Shown here in pieces: positions 2-8,602 of a DNA stretch of 64,000 nucleotides. This DNA is from Candidatus Heimdallarchaeota archaeon. GTDB taxonomy: Archaea > Asgardarchaeota > Heimdallarchaeia > Heimdallarchaeales > Heimdallarchaeaceae. The position numbers were made by a program, and so were the translations under genes. The notes under the pieces were generated by a model that did no database searches, was not told where the DNA came from, and saw only the letters and a list, made by a program, of their open reading frames with translations. The stretch lies in contig JAUVXV010000004.1 in the NCBI GenBank assembly GCA_030603365.1, positions 160,001 through 224,000 of the forward strand, read 5' to 3'. The number at the start of each line of letters is the position of its first letter. Position 1 is the stretch's first letter.

Positions 2-367
2 AACATCATTGGAGAAACTGTGTTGTTCCAAATAAGAGAAGGCAAAGATTCAGATATAAACGTTATAACACTGGAAAAAATACGAAACACTATGGGTGCA
101 TATGATGTTCCTGCTTCAATGATAAATGATGCTTTACAACAATTAAAAATCGTTTTACGAACAGCCATTAAGGAAGCTGAAGTCTCAATCAATGTTAAAG
201 ATATATCAGAAGACATTTCAAAAATGAAAGCTTTAAGTGATGCTGAAATGTCAGAACTCATTGTAAAGTTTGAAGGTCTTGATAGATTCAAAGAGAATAT
301 TCGTAACAAAATAGTGGAAAAACTCCAATTATCATATGAACAGTTACTAAAGGTAGATTATATCTAA
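2..367 (+). CDS. C-terminal part of a gene truncated by the window edge; helical hypothetical protein, possibly the AAA+ ATPase (PrkA/MoxR/chelatase-type) partner of the downstream vWA protein
   Basis: Frame is open from position 2 to TAA at 365-367. The ATPase idea rests on gene context only; no Walker motif lies inside the window. Confidence 0.5.
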   Translation, partial: NIIGETVLFQIREGKDSDINVITLEKIRNTMGAYDVPASMINDALQQLKIVLRTAIKEAEVSINVKDISEDISKMKALSDAEMSELIVKFEGLDRFKENIRNKIVEKLQLSYEQLLKVDYI

Positions 368-401
368 GGTGATCTTACTTTAACTTTGCAGAGTTGATAA
401 A

Positions 402-1787
402 ATGCCCCATCGAATAAATTTCGTAACTGAAGCAGAATTTGCTGATCCATTGCAACACTACAGTAACCAAGAGTTTGTTCTTGAGTTTGAAGATGCTGCT
501 CAAGTGTTAAAATTATGGCGAAATCCACATTTGGGTAGAAGTTCTCGTGAAGGTGCAGTTTTATCCATTGCTTCTAAAAATGCTGTTGCAGTAGAAAACA
601 TAATACAGAAAATTATGAATACATACTTGACTGCTGCTGAAGAAGAACGACTAGTTAATGAAATTAAACTCCTTCGTTTTATTGGTGAACGCGTACTTCC
701 AGATGTTTTGGAAAGAGTAAATCGTAACGAACTTCAAACAGTAGAAGATATTCTAAAGTATATTCAGGAACTTCTGAAGGAAATAAAACATGAAGGGTCT
801 GTTGACCTTCAACGTTTAGCAGAAAAACTCAATCAACTGAAGGATATTGTAGATATTGAAATTACTGATGCTTTTGGAAGGAAAAAGAGAATCTCACGAG
901 AAAGTGTCATGGACCTTCTAGGGAAAATCCTCGGTAGATATTTAGTGAAACAAATATCTGTTGCACCAATTGATGAAGTTCAAAAGCGCCCTAGAGGCAC
1001 AATTAGATTAAAAGAAACTTATCGTAGAGCGATATTAAGTTCTCAATCTGTTCCTCCTACTAAAGTGAAACAAGAAGATATAATGAGAGTTAAGAAAGAT
1101 CGTCGATCTTTAGTGTATCTAATTGTTGATATGAGCCAATCTATGCGGAAAAGTGTTTTTGAAGGAGGGATGTCTCGTTTAGATGGGGCACTTCTTACTA
1201 GTCTCAGTTTATACTACTATTTCAAGACACTCAACAGAAGAAAAAGGAAAAGCTATGATATGTTCAAACTTGCTGTTGTTCCTATTAGAAAGAATCCTAC
1301 AGTTATAGATGGTGATAACAACATGGAGCAACTTCTACTCACAGCTGAAGCACGTGGAAAAACATATATGGTTCAAAGCGTTCTCGCTGCGATTGAGCAT
1401 GCAAAAAGTCAATATATAGAGAAAGATATTGACGTTCAGTTCACAATTGTAACAGATGGAATGCCTAATGTGCCTTCTTATCCCTTCAAGCACCGCACAA
1501 ATAAAGAACTCAAGAAGTATTTCGATGAGATTGATACTAAAACTAGACCAAATACTATAGAATGCTTACTACAACTTAACGGAATCTTTTCAAGTTTAAA
1601 GAATGACCGGTCAAGAAACTGGAATGTGTCTTATTTCTTAATGGGGCCAGATTCACTAAGAAACAAGGAAATCTATATACATACCAAAAGAATGCTGAAA
1701 GGAATCACAAGGCCTATATTAGTAGACCCAGCCCAAGTTAGGAATCTTGGAGAACAGATACTAAGGGAGAGTATTTTATATGCTTAA
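402..1787 (+). CDS. von Willebrand factor A (vWA) domain protein
   Basis: MIDAS motif LIVDMSQSM (DxSxS), G-K-T, and IVTDG; upstream 'IRLKETYRRAI' segment typical of AAA-associated vWA proteins. Confidence 0.85.
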   Translation: MPHRINFVTEAEFADPLQHYSNQEFVLEFEDAAQVLKLWRNPHLGRSSREGAVLSIASKNAVAVENIIQKIMNTYLTAAEEERLVNEIKLLRFIGERVLPDVLERVNRNELQTVEDILKYIQELLKEIKHEGSVDLQRLAEKLNQLKDIVDIEITDAFGRKKRISRESVMDLLGKILGRYLVKQISVAPIDEVQKRPRGTIRLKETYRRAILSSQSVPPTKVKQEDIMRVKKDRRSLVYLIVDMSQSMRKSVFEGGMSRLDGALLTSLSLYYYFKTLNRRKRKSYDMFKLAVVPIRKNPTVIDGDNNMEQLLLTAEARGKTYMVQSVLAAIEHAKSQYIEKDIDVQFTIVTDGMPNVPSYPFKHRTNKELKKYFDEIDTKTRPNTIECLLQLNGIFSSLKNDRSRNWNVSYFLMGPDSLRNKEIYIHTKRMLKGITRPILVDPAQVRNLGEQILRESILYA

Positions 1788-3354
1788 AGAAGAACTTGCG
1801 GAGATAATTGTTGTTTATCAAAATGCTCGTGAGGATTTCAAAACTCTTGTAGGAGAAACTCCTGAAAATTATAGAGTTCTTATTTTTCTTGACCCTGAAA
1901 TGCATGTTTCTGTTAATCGAGTGGTAGAGGTCACAGGAACTCCTCAAGCTATACTAACTTCTGAGCAGATAACAAATCTTAGATCTGCAAGGATAAGTGA
2001 ATTTCTTCCTACTGGAAAAGAAACTGTCTATAATTCTCTTCCTACACTAATTTATCTATCAGTACCCTCCTACGAACTAACAATGGAGGAAGAACTGACC
2101 TTAAGAGTGATGCTTATTCATGCTTTTGCTCATGCTCTTATGAATGAGAAAACTGAATCAAATTCAGCGAGAGTTTTGGCTCAACTATATCAATTGGATG
2201 TTATACTCAAGGAACTAATGAGTAACAATGTTTTCCAGTTGAATAAAGTATCAAAAGACAAACATGTTTGGGCTTGGCAGTATTTCCAAGATTTAATTGG
2301 TGTAATAAGATTATTTACAGAAGCAGGTGTGGACGATTTCTATACTCCTCCTGAAGAAGCAAGAAAGTATACTCTGTTCAATAACTTTTCAATTGAAGCA
2401 ATAAATCTCATAGGAGAACGAGCAAAAACTGCAAGAAAGAAACATCTTCACGATATTATAGATGAAGGATTTGCTCATTATATACAACAAAAAGCAATAG
2501 AATACTTGTTAAAGAAAGATGAATACAAGCTTCCAAAAAGACATGAAGATAGATCCATAATATATCCAAATGGATTAAAAGCATTTTTAGCTCCTCCAGT
2601 AGGAGTTTTCAGTCAAGTAGCTATTAACAAACTTCTTACTAAATATAAAGATGAAAAGGAGATGTTTTCTAAATTATTCTCCTACAAATCTGATATAGAG
2701 TTTCTTGAAGAATTTACTTGGGATGAAATAAAGGATTTATTGGCAGTTAACAAAAATGCTCATTCAGAATATGTTGTAGATCATTGGCACTCATCAATAA
2801 GTAGATGGTCAGATATATGGTCTGTCTATGCTTATGGATGGAGGCAGATAGAAGAATACGTAAGTAAAGTTTTCAGAAGAAAATATTCTACTTTTGGTCA
2901 ACTTCTTGATGAAAATCCAAGTATTTCTTTTAAAGGATATGTTAAAGTGGATAACAAGAAAGTATATGTTTTTGAGGCTAATGATTATGGTATTGGAATA
3001 GATCAATTAGTCATTCTTCACAATCATATGTCTCTTTATAGAGATGATTTCAAAACAATTCTTCCTGCTTTTGCTGATGTGATTGTCTTTAAGAAAGTTG
3101 GAGGAATTCATGTTGCTACTTTATTTGCAGTCCACAAGGCCAAGTATAAATCTCTCTCGCCATATAACTTACCAGTTATAACCAGGGCAGTTCAAGTGAC
3201 AAAAAGAAAGGATGCATATAAGTTTGATTTAGACGAGGAAAAGGAAGCAAAATTCGAAATTAGAAATATTGACTATACACATCTCAGAAAGTTGACTCAA
3301 CCTCAACGAGGTGCTATTAGTTATCTAATAAAGGAGGGGTTGTTTGAATTATGA
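1780..3354 (+). CDS. Divergent SpoVR/YcgB-like protein (zincin-like HxxxH...EG motif lacking the catalytic Glu)
   Basis: Ordered motifs ETVYNSLP, LIHAFAH, IIDEGFAHY, SDIEFLEEF and P-x-I...YGIGID resemble recalled SpoVR blocks; start overlaps the vWA gene stop. Confidence 0.55.
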   Translation: MLKEELAEIIVVYQNAREDFKTLVGETPENYRVLIFLDPEMHVSVNRVVEVTGTPQAILTSEQITNLRSARISEFLPTGKETVYNSLPTLIYLSVPSYELTMEEELTLRVMLIHAFAHALMNEKTESNSARVLAQLYQLDVILKELMSNNVFQLNKVSKDKHVWAWQYFQDLIGVIRLFTEAGVDDFYTPPEEARKYTLFNNFSIEAINLIGERAKTARKKHLHDIIDEGFAHYIQQKAIEYLLKKDEYKLPKRHEDRSIIYPNGLKAFLAPPVGVFSQVAINKLLTKYKDEKEMFSKLFSYKSDIEFLEEFTWDEIKDLLAVNKNAHSEYVVDHWHSSISRWSDIWSVYAYGWRQIEEYVSKVFRRKYSTFGQLLDENPSISFKGYVKVDNKKVYVFEANDYGIGIDQLVILHNHMSLYRDDFKTILPAFADVIVFKKVGGIHVATLFAVHKAKYKSLSPYNLPVITRAVQVTKRKDAYKFDLDEEKEAKFEIRNIDYTHLRKLTQPQRGAISYLIKEGLFEL

Positions 3355-4124
3355 GTTTCCTAGATTTCTTACGCGGATTAACAATAGGAAGAAAACTAAA
3401 AAGTGAAGATCCATTAGATCGTGCATATTTCTCTCTTTTCATACGAAGAAGAGGAAAAGCTAAGGATATTAAAAGAATTTACCCTTTGATTGAGGATTCG
3501 GATTGGAATGTGAGAAATGCAGCAGCAGCTACCATTATAGAATTAGCTTCTAAATATCCAGAAATCAAAAAGAATGTTCTTAATCACCTTCATAATCTAA
3601 TTGAAAATAGCTCTTTGGCAATTAAACTTTCTACTTTGGAAGTTTTAGGTCATCTGAAAGATTATGGTTCAAAACCTTACTTAGTTAAGATTTTGGAAGA
3701 AAGTGATTATGATCTTCAATATGCAGCTATACGCGCAATTGGTTATTTAGATGATGTTGATGTTCTTAATCCACTTAAAAACGTAGTTTATGCAAGAGAT
3801 TATATCACAAGAAGAGCAGCAATACTCTCCGTTGTCAGAATTGCAAATTCAGTTAAAGAGGAAGAACAAGTCGGAAAATTAACCGATCATATGCATATTG
3901 TAATGGAATCTTACCTTGAATTAGAAGAGTTAGGGGAGACTATTTGTAAGATAATGGATTTTGCAGAAGTAGATAAACTACCTGAAATGAAAGGATATTC
4001 AGAATCAGAAATTGTTAAATTGGAAGGATTAATTGAGCAAAAAGATTATAGCGTTGAACTCTACCAGAATTTCGCTAGATTGATTTTTCCTGTATATTTC
4101 CCACTTGATGAGGAGGAAAACTAG
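3351..4124 (+). CDS. HEAT (PBS-lyase-like) repeat protein
   Basis: Repeated units DSDWNVRNAAA, SLAIKLSTLEVLG, SDYDLQYAAIRAIG, RDYITRRAAI; ATGA overlap with the upstream gene. Confidence 0.85.
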   Translation: MSFLDFLRGLTIGRKLKSEDPLDRAYFSLFIRRRGKAKDIKRIYPLIEDSDWNVRNAAAATIIELASKYPEIKKNVLNHLHNLIENSSLAIKLSTLEVLGHLKDYGSKPYLVKILEESDYDLQYAAIRAIGYLDDVDVLNPLKNVVYARDYITRRAAILSVVRIANSVKEEEQVGKLTDHMHIVMESYLELEELGETICKIMDFAEVDKLPEMKGYSESEIVKLEGLIEQKDYSVELYQNFARLIFPVYFPLDEEEN

Positions 4125-4814: not shown

Positions 4815-6797
4815 ATGATAATGACACTAGACATTGAGACTCCCTTAAAACCTAGAGGGGATCAACCAAAGGCAATAGAAAAACTAGTTGATGGAATAAA
4901 GAAAGGACATCAAAAACAAACTCTCCTTGGAGTTACTGGATCTGGTAAAACTATGACCATGGCACGTGTTATTGATAAAATAAAGAAACCAACCTTGGTT
5001 ATTGGTCCTAATAAAACCCTTGTTGCCCAGTTGTTTGGAGAATTTAAGACGCTTTTTCCATCAGCAAGTGTTAACTATTATGTTTCCTTTTATGATTATT
5101 ATCAACCTGAAGCATACTTGCCTTCCAAAGATCTTTACATCGAAAAAGATGTAGATATCAATCGCGAAATTGAACGCTTACGACATACGGCTCTTGAAGC
5201 TTTGGCTACCAGGGATGATGTAATTGTTTGTGCTTCAGTGTCTTGTATTTATGGAACAGGTCATCCCGATGTTTATCGTTCTAGACGTATAGCATTAAGT
5301 GTAGGAGAGAATCTTGATCGTCAAGATTTAATGTTAGAATTAGTGAAGAATCAGTATGAAAGAAATGATATCAGTCTTGAACGTAAAAATTTCAGGGTTA
5401 GAGGAGATTCCATAGATATTTTTCCGCTTTATGGTGATTATGTCTATCGTATTGAGTTCTTTGGAGACGAAATAGAACGTTTAACAGCTCGACATCCAGT
5501 CACTGGAGAGAAAATCAAAGAATATCCTCAAATGTCGATTTTTCCAGGTACACAATATCTTGCAAATGATGCTTTCTTCGAATCTGCTTTAGGCGATATT
5601 AAATTAGAACTTGATATGCGTTTAGCTGAATTCCAAAAAGAGGGTAAAGTTGTAGAAAGCCATAGACTAAGACAGAAGACTCTTTATGATTTAGAACTTC
5701 TAAGAGAAACAGGAGGCTGTTCTGGAATAGAAAATTATTCCCGTCACTTCGACAGAAGAAAACCAGGAGAAAAACCCTTTACTCTTCTTGATCACTTCCC
5801 AGATGATTTTCTATTAATTATAGATGAATCACATCTTACAATTCCCCAACTTCATGGTATGTATGGGGGAGATTTTTCAAGAAAAAAGAATCTAATTGAT
5901 CATGGTTTCAGGCTTCCATCAGCAGCTGATAACAGACCTTTTAGATTTGAAGAAACCGAGAAATATATGAGAACTGTTGTTTTTACAAGTGCTACTCCTG
6001 GGCCATATGAACATAAGTTTTCTCAGCAAATTGTGGAACAGATAATTCGACCCACAGGACTTATTGATCCTAAAATAGATGTCAGACGTAATGAAGGGCA
6101 AATACTTGATTTAGTTAGCGAAATAAATCAGAGAGTAGCTAAAGCGGAAAGGGTACTAGTTACTACACTAACAAAACAGAGCGCAGAAATGCTCTCTGAT
6201 TACCTGCTAGAGATGAAAATAAAATCAATTTATCTACATCATGAAGTTGATACTCTTGATAGAATAGAGATATTGAAGGACCTTAGACTTGGAAAGTATG
6301 ATGTAGTAGTTGGAATTAATTTATTGAGAGAAGGTTTAGATCTTCCTGAGGTAGCTTTAGTAGCTATACTTGATGCAGATAAAGAAGGATTTCTAAGATC
6401 GAGGAGATCACTGATTCAACTTATGGGACGAGCAAGTAGAAATGTTCATGGGAGTGTCATTCTCTATGCTGATAAATTGACAGATTCCATGAAACAAGCG
6501 ATTAGTGAAAATAATAGAAGACGAATTATTCAGCAAGAATATAACAATAAGCACGGCATAAAACCTACTACTATTCAAAAAGAAGTCAAATCAATCGTAG
6601 AACATTTGATGCAAGTTACTCCAAAGGAAGAAGAGAAAATAGACGTTCCGGATGGTTTAGCAACTGAAGATATCTTCCTTATTATCGATGATTTAAAAGA
6701 AAGAATGGCAGAAGCAGCAGGAACACTAGACTTCGAAAAAGCTGCTATCTATAGAGATAAAATTAAAGAACTTGAAAAAATGGTGAGCTCTAAATGA
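4815..6797 (+). CDS. uvrB: Excinuclease ABC subunit B
   Basis: GVTGSGKT Walker A, YYDYYQPEAY beta-hairpin, IIDESH, GRASRN, C-terminal UVR domain (DFEKAAIYRD). Confidence 0.98.
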   Translation: MIMTLDIETPLKPRGDQPKAIEKLVDGIKKGHQKQTLLGVTGSGKTMTMARVIDKIKKPTLVIGPNKTLVAQLFGEFKTLFPSASVNYYVSFYDYYQPEAYLPSKDLYIEKDVDINREIERLRHTALEALATRDDVIVCASVSCIYGTGHPDVYRSRRIALSVGENLDRQDLMLELVKNQYERNDISLERKNFRVRGDSIDIFPLYGDYVYRIEFFGDEIERLTARHPVTGEKIKEYPQMSIFPGTQYLANDAFFESALGDIKLELDMRLAEFQKEGKVVESHRLRQKTLYDLELLRETGGCSGIENYSRHFDRRKPGEKPFTLLDHFPDDFLLIIDESHLTIPQLHGMYGGDFSRKKNLIDHGFRLPSAADNRPFRFEETEKYMRTVVFTSATPGPYEHKFSQQIVEQIIRPTGLIDPKIDVRRNEGQILDLVSEINQRVAKAERVLVTTLTKQSAEMLSDYLLEMKIKSIYLHHEVDTLDRIEILKDLRLGKYDVVVGINLLREGLDLPEVALVAILDADKEGFLRSRRSLIQLMGRASRNVHGSVILYADKLTDSMKQAISENNRRRIIQQEYNNKHGIKPTTIQKEVKSIVEHLMQVTPKEEEKIDVPDGLATEDIFLIIDDLKERMAEAAGTLDFEKAAIYRDKIKELEKMVSSK

Positions 6798-8602
6798 GTC
6801 TTTTCTCTGATCTTGAAGAGATACCGGACGACCCAGGAGTATATTTAATTAAAGATAAAGATGAAAAGGTAATTTACGTAGGTAAAGCCAAGAATTTGAA
6901 GAACAGAGTTAAACAACATTTCCAAACCACCTCTCTTCCAAAAGAAGACAAACTTCAAGAATTAGCTCATAGAGTTAATTGGTTTTTAGTAAGAAATGAA
7001 TCAGAGGCATTGATTTTAGAGAGGAAATTGATAAGACAACTATCTCCTAAACTTAATAGCATGCTAAAGGACGATAAGTCTAATTTACTTGTTAGAATAA
7101 CTATGGAAGATACATTCCCTCAGATACTTATTGTTAGAGAAACAGATTCACGTGTAAGTAAGAGTGTATACTTCGGTCCTTTTACTAATAACACGATGCT
7201 CAGACAGACAGTTAAATTGGTTTTAAGGTTATTTCCAATATGTAACTGTGGTAAAAATTTTGAAAGAATCAGAGAAAAAGGTTCTACAATTCGATGTATG
7301 CGGGCAAGGTTGGGAAGATGTTTAGCTCCTTGGAAGAACGATATTACTTCAGAAGAATATCGAAAAACAGCCAAAAATGTAATTTCTTTTCTCAGGGGAG
7401 ATGTAGCTCAACTATTAGATAATATTGAAAAAGAGATGTGGGTAGCTTCAAAGGATTCAAATTATGAAAAAGCAGCATCTTTACGAGACCTCACTCGAGC
7501 TGTACGTACAATTTTGAATATTCAAGAAGATCTTAAATCTGTAAGAAAGAATGTAGATGTATTGGCTTATATTGAGGAAGAGGATGACATAGCTTTCTGC
7601 AAATTAGAAATTAGAGCGTATCGCATACATAACATCATGAACGATGTTTTTCCAAAAGAGGACGGGAAGTTAAAGAAACTAGGTGAAGTGTTAGCATTTA
7701 TTTATGGTCAAGAAAAACCAAAATTTTCAATTTTACTAGATAAGAATTTTACAAATCGTTTTAAAATAAATATTGAATTACCCATAAAATATCCTACAAA
7801 CACTGTTTCAGAGCAATTGTGTAAGATAGCAGAAAAAAATGCTCGTAGTGAGATGCAGAAATATAAACGAGATGTTCAATATCTGAAAGAATCCGAAAAT
7901 GTTCTAGAGGAAATGCAGAAACAATTTCAGCTATCAGACTTACCTGAAATCATTCACGGGTATGATATTTCTACTCTCGGAGGAGAACATTCTGTTGGTT
8001 CCTGTGTTGTTTTTCAGAATGGTAAACCTCAGAAGAAATTATATAGACGTTTTCGAATTAGAAAAACCTATTCTGAACCAAATGATTATGCAATGATGGA
8101 GGAAGTTATTTCTAGAAGATATAAGTCTGAGGCTTTGAAAAATGATCCTTCACCTCAATTACTTATCATTGATGGTGGAAAAGGACAACTAAATATTGCT
8201 ATTAAGGTACTAAAAAAACTCAAAATTGATGTACCAATTATAAGCATCGCTAAGAAGAAAGAGGAAATCTATACTAAATGGTCAGATGACCCCCTAAGTA
8301 TTGAAAAAGATTCTAGTGTGCAACGTTTAGTTCAATATGTGCGAGATGAATCACACCGTTTTGCAATTAATTACCATAAGACATTGAGATTAAAATCAGT
8401 TAAAGATTCTGCCTTAGAAAAAATAAAGGGAATAGGGAAAGCTAAGGTTTCAATGCTTTTTCAAGAATACAAAAATCTACAAAATATATCTAATGCAACA
8501 AAAGAGGAAATTATGAAGAAAATAGGTGTAAACGAGGAGATAGCAAAACAGGTCTTATCCATGACTCAAAAAATTCTGAAAAAGAGCCCATACGATGATT
8601 AA
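6794..8602 (+). CDS. uvrC: Excinuclease ABC subunit C
   Basis: GIY-YIG (GVY...YVGKAKNL), UVR domain, RNase H-like domain (YDIS, IDGGKGQL, RDESHRFA), HhH; ATGA overlap with uvrB. Confidence 0.97.
   Translation: MSLFSDLEEIPDDPGVYLIKDKDEKVIYVGKAKNLKNRVKQHFQTTSLPKEDKLQELAHRVNWFLVRNESEALILERKLIRQLSPKLNSMLKDDKSNLLVRITMEDTFPQILIVRETDSRVSKSVYFGPFTNNTMLRQTVKLVLRLFPICNCGKNFERIREKGSTIRCMRARLGRCLAPWKNDITSEEYRKTAKNVISFLRGDVAQLLDNIEKEMWVASKDSNYEKAASLRDLTRAVRTILNIQEDLKSVRKNVDVLAYIEEEDDIAFCKLEIRAYRIHNIMNDVFPKEDGKLKKLGEVLAFIYGQEKPKFSILLDKNFTNRFKINIELPIKYPTNTVSEQLCKIAEKNARSEMQKYKRDVQYLKESENVLEEMQKQFQLSDLPEIIHGYDISTLGGEHSVGSCVVFQNGKPQKKLYRRFRIRKTYSEPNDYAMMEEVISRRYKSEALKNDPSPQLLIIDGGKGQLNIAIKVLKKLKIDVPIISIAKKKEEIYTKWSDDPLSIEKDSSVQRLVQYVRDESHRFAINYHKTLRLKSVKDSALEKIKGIGKAKVSMLFQEYKNLQNISNATKEEIMKKIGVNEEIAKQVLSMTQKILKKSPYDD

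Follow-up and report, generated by a model that had tools for sequence, protein, structure and literature searches.

A translationally coupled five-gene operon of Heimdallarchaeia with a putative MoxR-like AAA+/vWA pair and a predicted zincin-fold pseudo-protease

Two kinds of described systems are among the closest to the operon reported here, which opens a stretch of 64,000 nucleotides (nt) from a Candidatus Heimdallarchaeota genome (G000:C14:160001-224000), called the window in the following. The first kind comprises pairs of a MoxR/ChlI-type AAA+ ATPase and a von Willebrand factor A (vWA) protein with a metal ion-dependent adhesion site (MIDAS), as in RavA-ViaA, CbbQ-CbbO, NorQ-NorD, CoxD-CoxE and ChlI-ChlD. 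The second is the bacterial PrkA-YeaH-SpoVR module, the biochemistry of which is, to our knowledge, poorly understood. With the former the operon shares an AAA+ gene directly followed by a vWA gene with a complete MIDAS, with the latter the order of an AAA+ protein, a vWA protein and a protein of about 510-520 amino acids (aa) with a predicted zincin fold that lacks the catalytic Glu.

An initial annotation had interpreted the locus as a remote archaeal version of the PrkA-YeaH-SpoVR ternary system. Our analysis favours, with a probability of roughly 60%, a remodelling machine built on a MoxR-like AAA+/vWA pair, to which non-catalytic accessory subunits are added. The gene order of the ternary system was recovered, whereas ATPase and vWA protein do not belong to its families; the comparison holds for the layout and, possibly, for the third subunit. 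We therefore regard the triad as analogous to the PrkA system, with a third subunit that is possibly homologous, and not as its archaeal form.

Gene order, coupling and synteny

Five translationally coupled genes make up the operon, and all but the first of them lie, the second one in part, in the first 4.1 kb of the window. Four open reading frames (ORFs) follow each other on the + strand at 2..367 (5′ end open), 402..1787, 1780..3354 and 3351..4124, so that the four co-oriented genes described initially and their overlaps at 1780-1787 and 3351-3354 are confirmed. The overlap between the vWA gene and the gene of a 524-aa protein, here named X524, reads ATGCTTAA, the one between X524 and the HEAT gene is ATGA, and a GGAG-type ribosome-binding site lies ahead of each of these two junctions. 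The AAA+ and vWA genes are 34 nt apart. By reading 12 kb before window base 1 the first gene could be completed: the AAA+ gene (G000:C14:158817-160367, corresponding to L002:10817-12367) begins 1,183 nt upstream of window base 1 and encodes 516 aa, of which the last 121 codons fall into the window. The operon is headed by an ORF of 200 aa (L002:10197-10799, about 1.2 kb before window base 1) that ends 17 nt before the AAA+ ORF. It shows a weak Arf match and a degenerate P-loop (GDNNPATR) and is referred to as pseudo-Arf. The order of the operon is thus pseudo-Arf, AAA+ ATPase, vWA, X524 and HEAT. The last gene encodes 257 aa and is the most readily classified one, with HEAT_2 matching at E=7e-24 in four stretches and HEAT at E=2.7e-7, in agreement with the HEAT subunit proposed at the outset.

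The block of AAA, vWA, X524 and HEAT genes is complete and in the same order in 13/13 fetched loci from five families of the GTDB taxonomy; pseudo-Arf is present in ten of these loci, directly upstream in nine, and no other neighbour is conserved across the 13. When loci were anchored on the ATPase, the whole block was found in 42 of 55, with median gene overlaps of -8 and -4 nt, and 36 of these 42 also carry the Arf-like gene. The other 13 loci yielded fewer of the genes, with no foreign gene interposed among those found; many of these loci are short or extend only a little way downstream. The co-occurrence of the genes first noticed in a single sequence is therefore a conserved one.

The AAA+ ATPase and the vWA protein

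The truncated first gene had been taken for that of the ATPase, and its full sequence agrees with this, showing both a Walker A motif (GPTGEAKT, with the Lys present) and a Walker B motif. The latter has the form hhVVNE, in which Asn replaces the usual Asp in 13/13 aligned orthologues. FTSN as sensor 1 and R284 as candidate for the Arg finger were assigned by eye from the same alignment. Between Walker A and Walker B there is a Zn-ribbon-like insert of about 95 aa with H88, C92 and C123-x2-C126. The three Cys of this insert are all replaced together in one genus (L036, L039), a pattern as expected for a dispensable structural zinc site.

An ATPase of PrkA type, as had been supposed, was not recovered. 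PrkA is reported to be a clade III AAA+ protein with a C-terminal kinase-like domain (PMC13001217). The Heimdall ATPase is about 130 aa shorter (516 versus 645-656 aa), no C-terminal kinase-like domain was seen in it, and neither AAA_PrkA (PF08298) nor PrkA (PF06798) matches any of the 13 orthologues at E<=0.1, the threshold used for Pfam families with the 13 orthologues of both ATPase and vWA protein. The families that are matched, weakly, are Sigma54_activat (11/13), AAA_5 (9/13) and Mg_chelatase (7/13), and the window's own ATPase reaches 21 bits with Sigma54_activat at a cut-off of 20.2. AAA_3 (MoxR) is not among them. In the ESM Atlas, which lists language-model look-alikes, the ATPase scores 0.97 to archaeal AAA_5/Mg_chelatase/Sigma54_activat clusters of 470-545 aa. 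Comparison of the family profile by hhalign gave a probability of 76% (P=2e-5) with the three MoxR genes of the same genome, against 2.9% with two genuine PrkA proteins. Taken together, these weak sequence matches point to an ATPase of the ChlI/MoxR/AAA_5 type and not to PrkA; its placement in the helix-2-insert (MoxR/ChlI/sigma54) group is suggested by the Pfam matches, the Atlas look-alikes and motifs partly assigned by eye.

The resemblance to the MoxR/ChlI pairs has its bounds. The ATPase differs from theirs in its length of 516 aa, its large insert, the Walker B Asn and the lack of an AAA_3 match, and the operon differs from theirs by the addition of pseudo-Arf, a pseudo-zincin and a HEAT protein and by the lack of a linked client gene. 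A profile search with alignment A2 delivered 106 proteins, all from Asgard archaea, and a search for related loci with the AAA alignment gave Heimdall orthologues only, because its patterns are very specific. Within the AAA+ gene and antisense to it lies an ORF of 117 aa (L002:10768-11121, - strand) that appears 'conserved' in six loci; this is most simply a by-product of the strong conservation of the AAA+ coding frame.

The vWA protein (461 aa, 402..1787) starts with a helical region of about 230 aa to which no family could be assigned. Its C-terminal vWA domain has a complete MIDAS, with DxSxS at nt 1128-1142, T321, and D352 at nt 1455-1457, and the five residues D243, S245, S247, T321 and D352 do not vary among 13 sequences. 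Taken on its own, the copy in the window has no Pfam match. Its orthologues match VWA_2 (9/13, best E=5e-5), VWA (3/13) and VWA_CoxE (3/13), the last of which is a point of likeness to CoxE. Judged by these matches and the MIDAS residues, it is a vWA protein, as annotated. Its identification with YeaH had to be given up: DUF444 (PF04285) matches 0/13 orthologues, and hhalign of the vWA protein against genuine DUF444/YeaH remained at noise level (probability 1.4%, P=0.037).

The 524-aa protein and its likeness to SpoVR

X524 has no match in Pfam or NCBIfam. Its 28 homologues all belong to Heimdall-group archaea, and a profile search of 1.84 billion representative proteins returned 20 sequences, all of them family members or fragments. 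Look-alikes in the ESM Atlas are unnamed bacterial clusters only (0.93). Sequence searches of the PDB, with the single proteins and with AAA, vWA, X524 and X524 C-terminal profiles, gave chance-level rows only. Every motif quoted in the initial annotation was found again: ETVYNSLP at aa 81-88 (from nt 2020), HAFAH at aa 114-118 (nt 2119-2133), IIDEGFAHY (with E228 at nt 2461-2463), SDIEFLEEF and YGIGID.

Structural comparison was based on an AlphaFold2 model built from 15 homologues, with a mean predicted local distance difference test score (pLDDT) of 81 and a predicted template modelling score (pTM) of 0.83. Foldseek of this model against the PDB found no match at E<=0.001, the top rows being RecJ/DHH proteins with a template modelling (TM) score of about 0.1. 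An exhaustive VIA-align search, by comparison, produced for residues 1-345 (1780..2814) an almost pure list of zincin catalytic domains: M1 aminopeptidases, LTA4 hydrolase, TAF2, M32 carboxypeptidases, thermolysin, M3, M2 and the DUF885-type 3o0y. The matched chain ranges are what we take to be the catalytic domains, e.g. LTA4H 224-454. According to the model, residues 1-345 adopt a zincin (gluzincin) fold, and the similarity to zincins considered initially was thus found by one of the two structure searches. Helix 102-124 carries HAFAH and helix 225-245 carries DEGFAHY, at the places where a gluzincin has HExxH and the distal Glu, and about 100 aa of conserved extra helices are modelled between the two.

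Catalytically dead M1-type zincins, such as TAF2 of TFIID, and proteins combining zincin and vWA domains, such as CLCA, are likewise among the closest known systems, but X524 differs from them in several respects. Six-frame searches of its own genome with the Peptidase_MA_2 and DUF2201_N models (E<=0.1) and Peptidase_M1 (E<=0.001) did not detect the X524 gene, its ligands are spaced by about 110 aa and not by 18, and the parts are located on separate polypeptides. The C-terminal alpha/beta domain (aa ~380-524, 2917..3354) shows a modelled beta-beta-alpha-beta-beta core and no Pfam or PDB sequence match; its best-conserved motifs are QLxxLHNH (409-416), D433, P461 and R469-A470. A PD-(D/E)xK nuclease, to which the string 'PD-hhh-F-K-K' in this domain might hint, was rejected, as there is no supporting match and no conserved acidic-x-Lys after it.

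The motif states in 52 family sequences speak against catalysis. The Glu of HExxH is replaced by Ala, Ser, Leu, Thr or Val in every single member, so X524 should be unable to cleave peptides. The triad H114, H118 and E228 is retained in the GTDB families f1, f3 and f7 and lost in f2, in all members of f4 and in the divergent P0038, P0043 and P0048. Since the catalytic Glu is absent and the metal ligands are lost in several lineages, we infer that X524 is a pseudo-protease with a non-catalytic role, and an active zincin/gluzincin metallopeptidase was rejected on the same grounds. The ETVYNSLP block is mainly confined to f1. As the quoted 'zinc' motifs vary across the family in this way, they cannot be the conserved function of X524. 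Invariant residues are found instead in the helical insert (N149-N150, W164, Y168, D171, P190, R214) and in the C-terminal motifs named above, and the conserved surfaces are probably interaction surfaces.

Two other readings depend on the metal site. One is an ATP-dependent protease resembling FtsH with its parts on separate chains, in which the AAA+ ring would unfold and the X524 zincin would cleave the substrate. The fold and the His-His-Glu ligands kept in the window's lineage, f3 and f7 would suit such an enzyme, but the general base is missing throughout, the ligands disappear from whole lineages while the rest of the operon is conserved, and the best-conserved residues lie outside the metal site, which makes this reading very improbable. 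The other is a dedicated chelatase-like machine for metal-cofactor insertion, comparable to CoxD/CoxE, NorQ/NorD or ChlI/ChlD/ChlH, with the zincin-fold protein as metal carrier wherever His-His-Glu is kept. It would account for the weak Mg_chelatase and VWA_CoxE matches and for a metal triad that persists beside a lost catalytic Glu in f1, f3 and f7. However, f2 and f4 do without the triad, the operon has no linked gene for a candidate target enzyme, and we consider this possibility unlikely.

For the comparison with SpoVR, a genuine SpoVR (P0054) from the class-level relative G079 was used, together with a 20-sequence alignment built from it. The SpoVR blocks cited in the initial annotation are roughly right: P0054 and the alignment show E-h-V-I-N-S-N-P, A-H-A-x-x-G-H and M-N-E-G-x-A, with E-x-V-I-N-S-x-P, H-A-x-x-G-H and N-E-G-x-A as invariant blocks. 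Direct searches failed to connect the two proteins. The SpoVR hidden Markov model (HMM) did not detect the X524 gene in a six-frame search of its own genome at E<=1 and found nothing at E<=0.001 in 55 carrier genomes (families f1, f2, f3, f4 and f7). SpoVR (PF04293) and SpoVR_C (PF24755) gave no match in 15 X524 family members at E<=0.1, and BLAST of X524 against SpoVR stayed at noise level.

Alignment of the two profiles by hhalign yielded a single weak match (probability 12%, P=0.0025) of 166 collinear columns. It spans X524 69-246 and SpoVR 76-295, runs through the three N-terminal blocks proposed initially and pairs H118 and the well-conserved E123 of X524 with the two invariant His of SpoVR. 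The score of 34.3 compares with 17-19 for reversed and 15-25 for unrelated alignments, and one of 60 block shuffles of SpoVR reaches it; the collinear motif match thus appears to be more than chance, but weak. In a comparison with one SpoVR sequence, the X524 profile reached P=5e-4, on the (N/D)EGFA helix; with an M1-like protein encoded by the same genome, P was 0.13. The spacing of the His residues differs, with HxxxxH in SpoVR and HxxxH in X524, and the C-terminal domains have no sequence similarity.

A solved structure of SpoVR was not found. Its AlphaFold2 model is of moderate quality (pLDDT 72, pTM 0.73), with residues 50-100 poorly modelled. The X524 and SpoVR models match the same zincin chains, with about 31 of 50 rows common to both search lists, including 3o0y and 3u24. 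Both proteins, of 524 and 511 aa, combine an N-terminal zincin-like region with a small C-terminal beta-beta-alpha-beta-beta unit, and both have the (N/D)EGFA helix and a long stretch of inserted helices that separates the two motif helices. SpoVR is therefore predicted to have a zincin fold, and in the literature searched no paper connecting SpoVR with zincins was found. In architecture SpoVR is the closest named relative of X524; homology falls short of demonstration, because any two zincins would share most of their structure matches. Of the SpoVR-like character claimed for X524, the zincin fold and the weak collinear profile match stand; the family model does not recognise it.

These results also bear on whether the operon is, after all, truly though very remotely orthologous to the bacterial PrkA-YeaH-SpoVR module of stress and dormancy, with all three core subunits descended from one ancestral triad and with HEAT and pseudo-Arf added. 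The gene order is that of the canonical operon on contig C578 of G079, the third proteins agree in length and two-part layout, and the overlap of structure matches and the profile comparisons given above would be in line with common descent. On the other hand, the ATPase prefers MoxR over PrkA and lacks the kinase-like C-terminus, the vWA protein has no DUF444 match, neither the SpoVR HMM nor the search of 1.84 billion proteins links X524 to SpoVR, the C-terminal domains are dissimilar, and shared matches are common to zincins in general. Such orthology is in our opinion quite unlikely. Somewhat different is the proposal that SpoVR is a zincin-derived pseudo-protease with X524 as its archaeal homologue, both modules going back to one design of 'AAA+ motor + MIDAS adaptor + dead zincin' and the Heimdall lineage having recruited an Arf-derived pseudo-GTPase and a HEAT solenoid; this proposal seems doubtful.

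Canonical prkA, DUF444 and spoVR genes occur twice in the relative G079, one set on C578 (L045/L052/L053/L055) and one on C418 and C713 (L050/L054/L056). On C578 prkA, DUF444 and spoVR follow each other in that order on one strand. The SpoVR there is a single frame of 766 aa in which an insert of about 250 aa follows HMM position 44; as a 767-aa homologue carries PF14890, the insert is probably an intein. The contigs of G079 are short, and bacterial contamination of this metagenome-assembled genome is possible.

Distribution, proposed mechanism and biological meaning

The distribution was analysed in 400 Asgard genomes, 83 from within the class Heimdallarchaeia and 317 from outside. X524 was detected in 29/30 genomes of family f1, 1/1 of f2, 3/3 of f3, 10/12 of f4, 0/22 of f5, 0/2 of f6 and 10/12 of f7, and in the 317 further genomes there was one chance-level match. 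In the 83 genomes of the class, the phyletic profiles of AAA and vWA are nearly identical to that of X524; the single f1 genome without X524 (G017) also lacks AAA and vWA. The operon is single-copy and near-universal in its carrier families. It is vertically inherited and restricted to part of the class. Canonical SpoVR lies above the family cut-off in two of the 400 genomes, neither of which is an operon carrier.

Pairs of AAA+ and vWA proteins with a variable third protein are a known layout of conflict systems, and a defence system of the vWA-MoxR ternary type, with the pair controlling an effector, has to be considered here. This layout and some weak HEAT-like rows in PADLOC would be in its favour. 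Against it, PADLOC gave no meaningful match for ATPase, vWA protein or X524, no effector domain is recognisable, and the operon occurs in one copy per genome, nearly universally in its carrier families and in stable synteny, with DNA-repair genes downstream and metabolic genes, for a NUDIX hydrolase and an enzyme dependent on pyridoxal phosphate (PLP), upstream. Such housekeeping surroundings do not suggest a mobile defence island, and a role in conflict hardly seems probable.

Downstream of the operon uvrB (window 4815-6797) and uvrC (6794-8602) overlap by 4 nt, and two small reverse-strand ORFs without family matches are located between the operon and uvrB. The NUDIX hydrolase and PLP-dependent enzyme genes lie on its upstream side.

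For the favoured reading, a MoxR-like AAA+/vWA remodelling machine, the following mechanism can be proposed. The five proteins would act as a complex in which the AAA+ ring hydrolyses ATP and the vWA protein docks on this ring via its N-terminal helical region. Through the intact metal site of its MIDAS the vWA protein would take hold of an acidic residue in a client or partner, and the force would serve to remodel or assemble a client encoded away from the operon, or to load a cofactor into it. X524 would probably serve as binding or adaptor subunit via its helical insert and C-terminal domain, and the HEAT protein probably as scaffold.

Several observations weigh against this reading. The Walker B Asp is replaced by Asn in every member, so that ATP may be turned over slowly or not at all. 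The AAA+ assignment draws on weak sequence matches, the best solved relative having E=0.01. The C-terminal domain, the best-conserved part of X524, has no assigned fold, and no client gene is conserved beside the operon in the 13 loci. The roles of the subunits are, finally, predictions from genes and models.

With the exception of the HEAT subunit, the core proteins of this operon fall below the detection limit of standard family models. Its near-universal presence in single copy in several families of Heimdallarchaeia makes it likely that the operon encodes a core machine of the cell in archaea that stand near the eukaryotic stem. As a MoxR-like motor is joined here by two dead enzymes, an Arf-type GTPase and a zincin, the operon lends itself well to the question of how pseudo-enzymes are turned into structural subunits. 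For the bacterial PrkA/YeaH/SpoVR module, the predicted zincin fold of SpoVR provides a concrete structural hypothesis. Arf-derived GTPases and HEAT solenoids are otherwise typical parts of eukaryotic coat and assembly machines. If both modules do derive from one dead-zincin design, the lineage nearest to the eukaryotes would have recruited an Arf-derived pseudo-GTPase and a HEAT solenoid to it.

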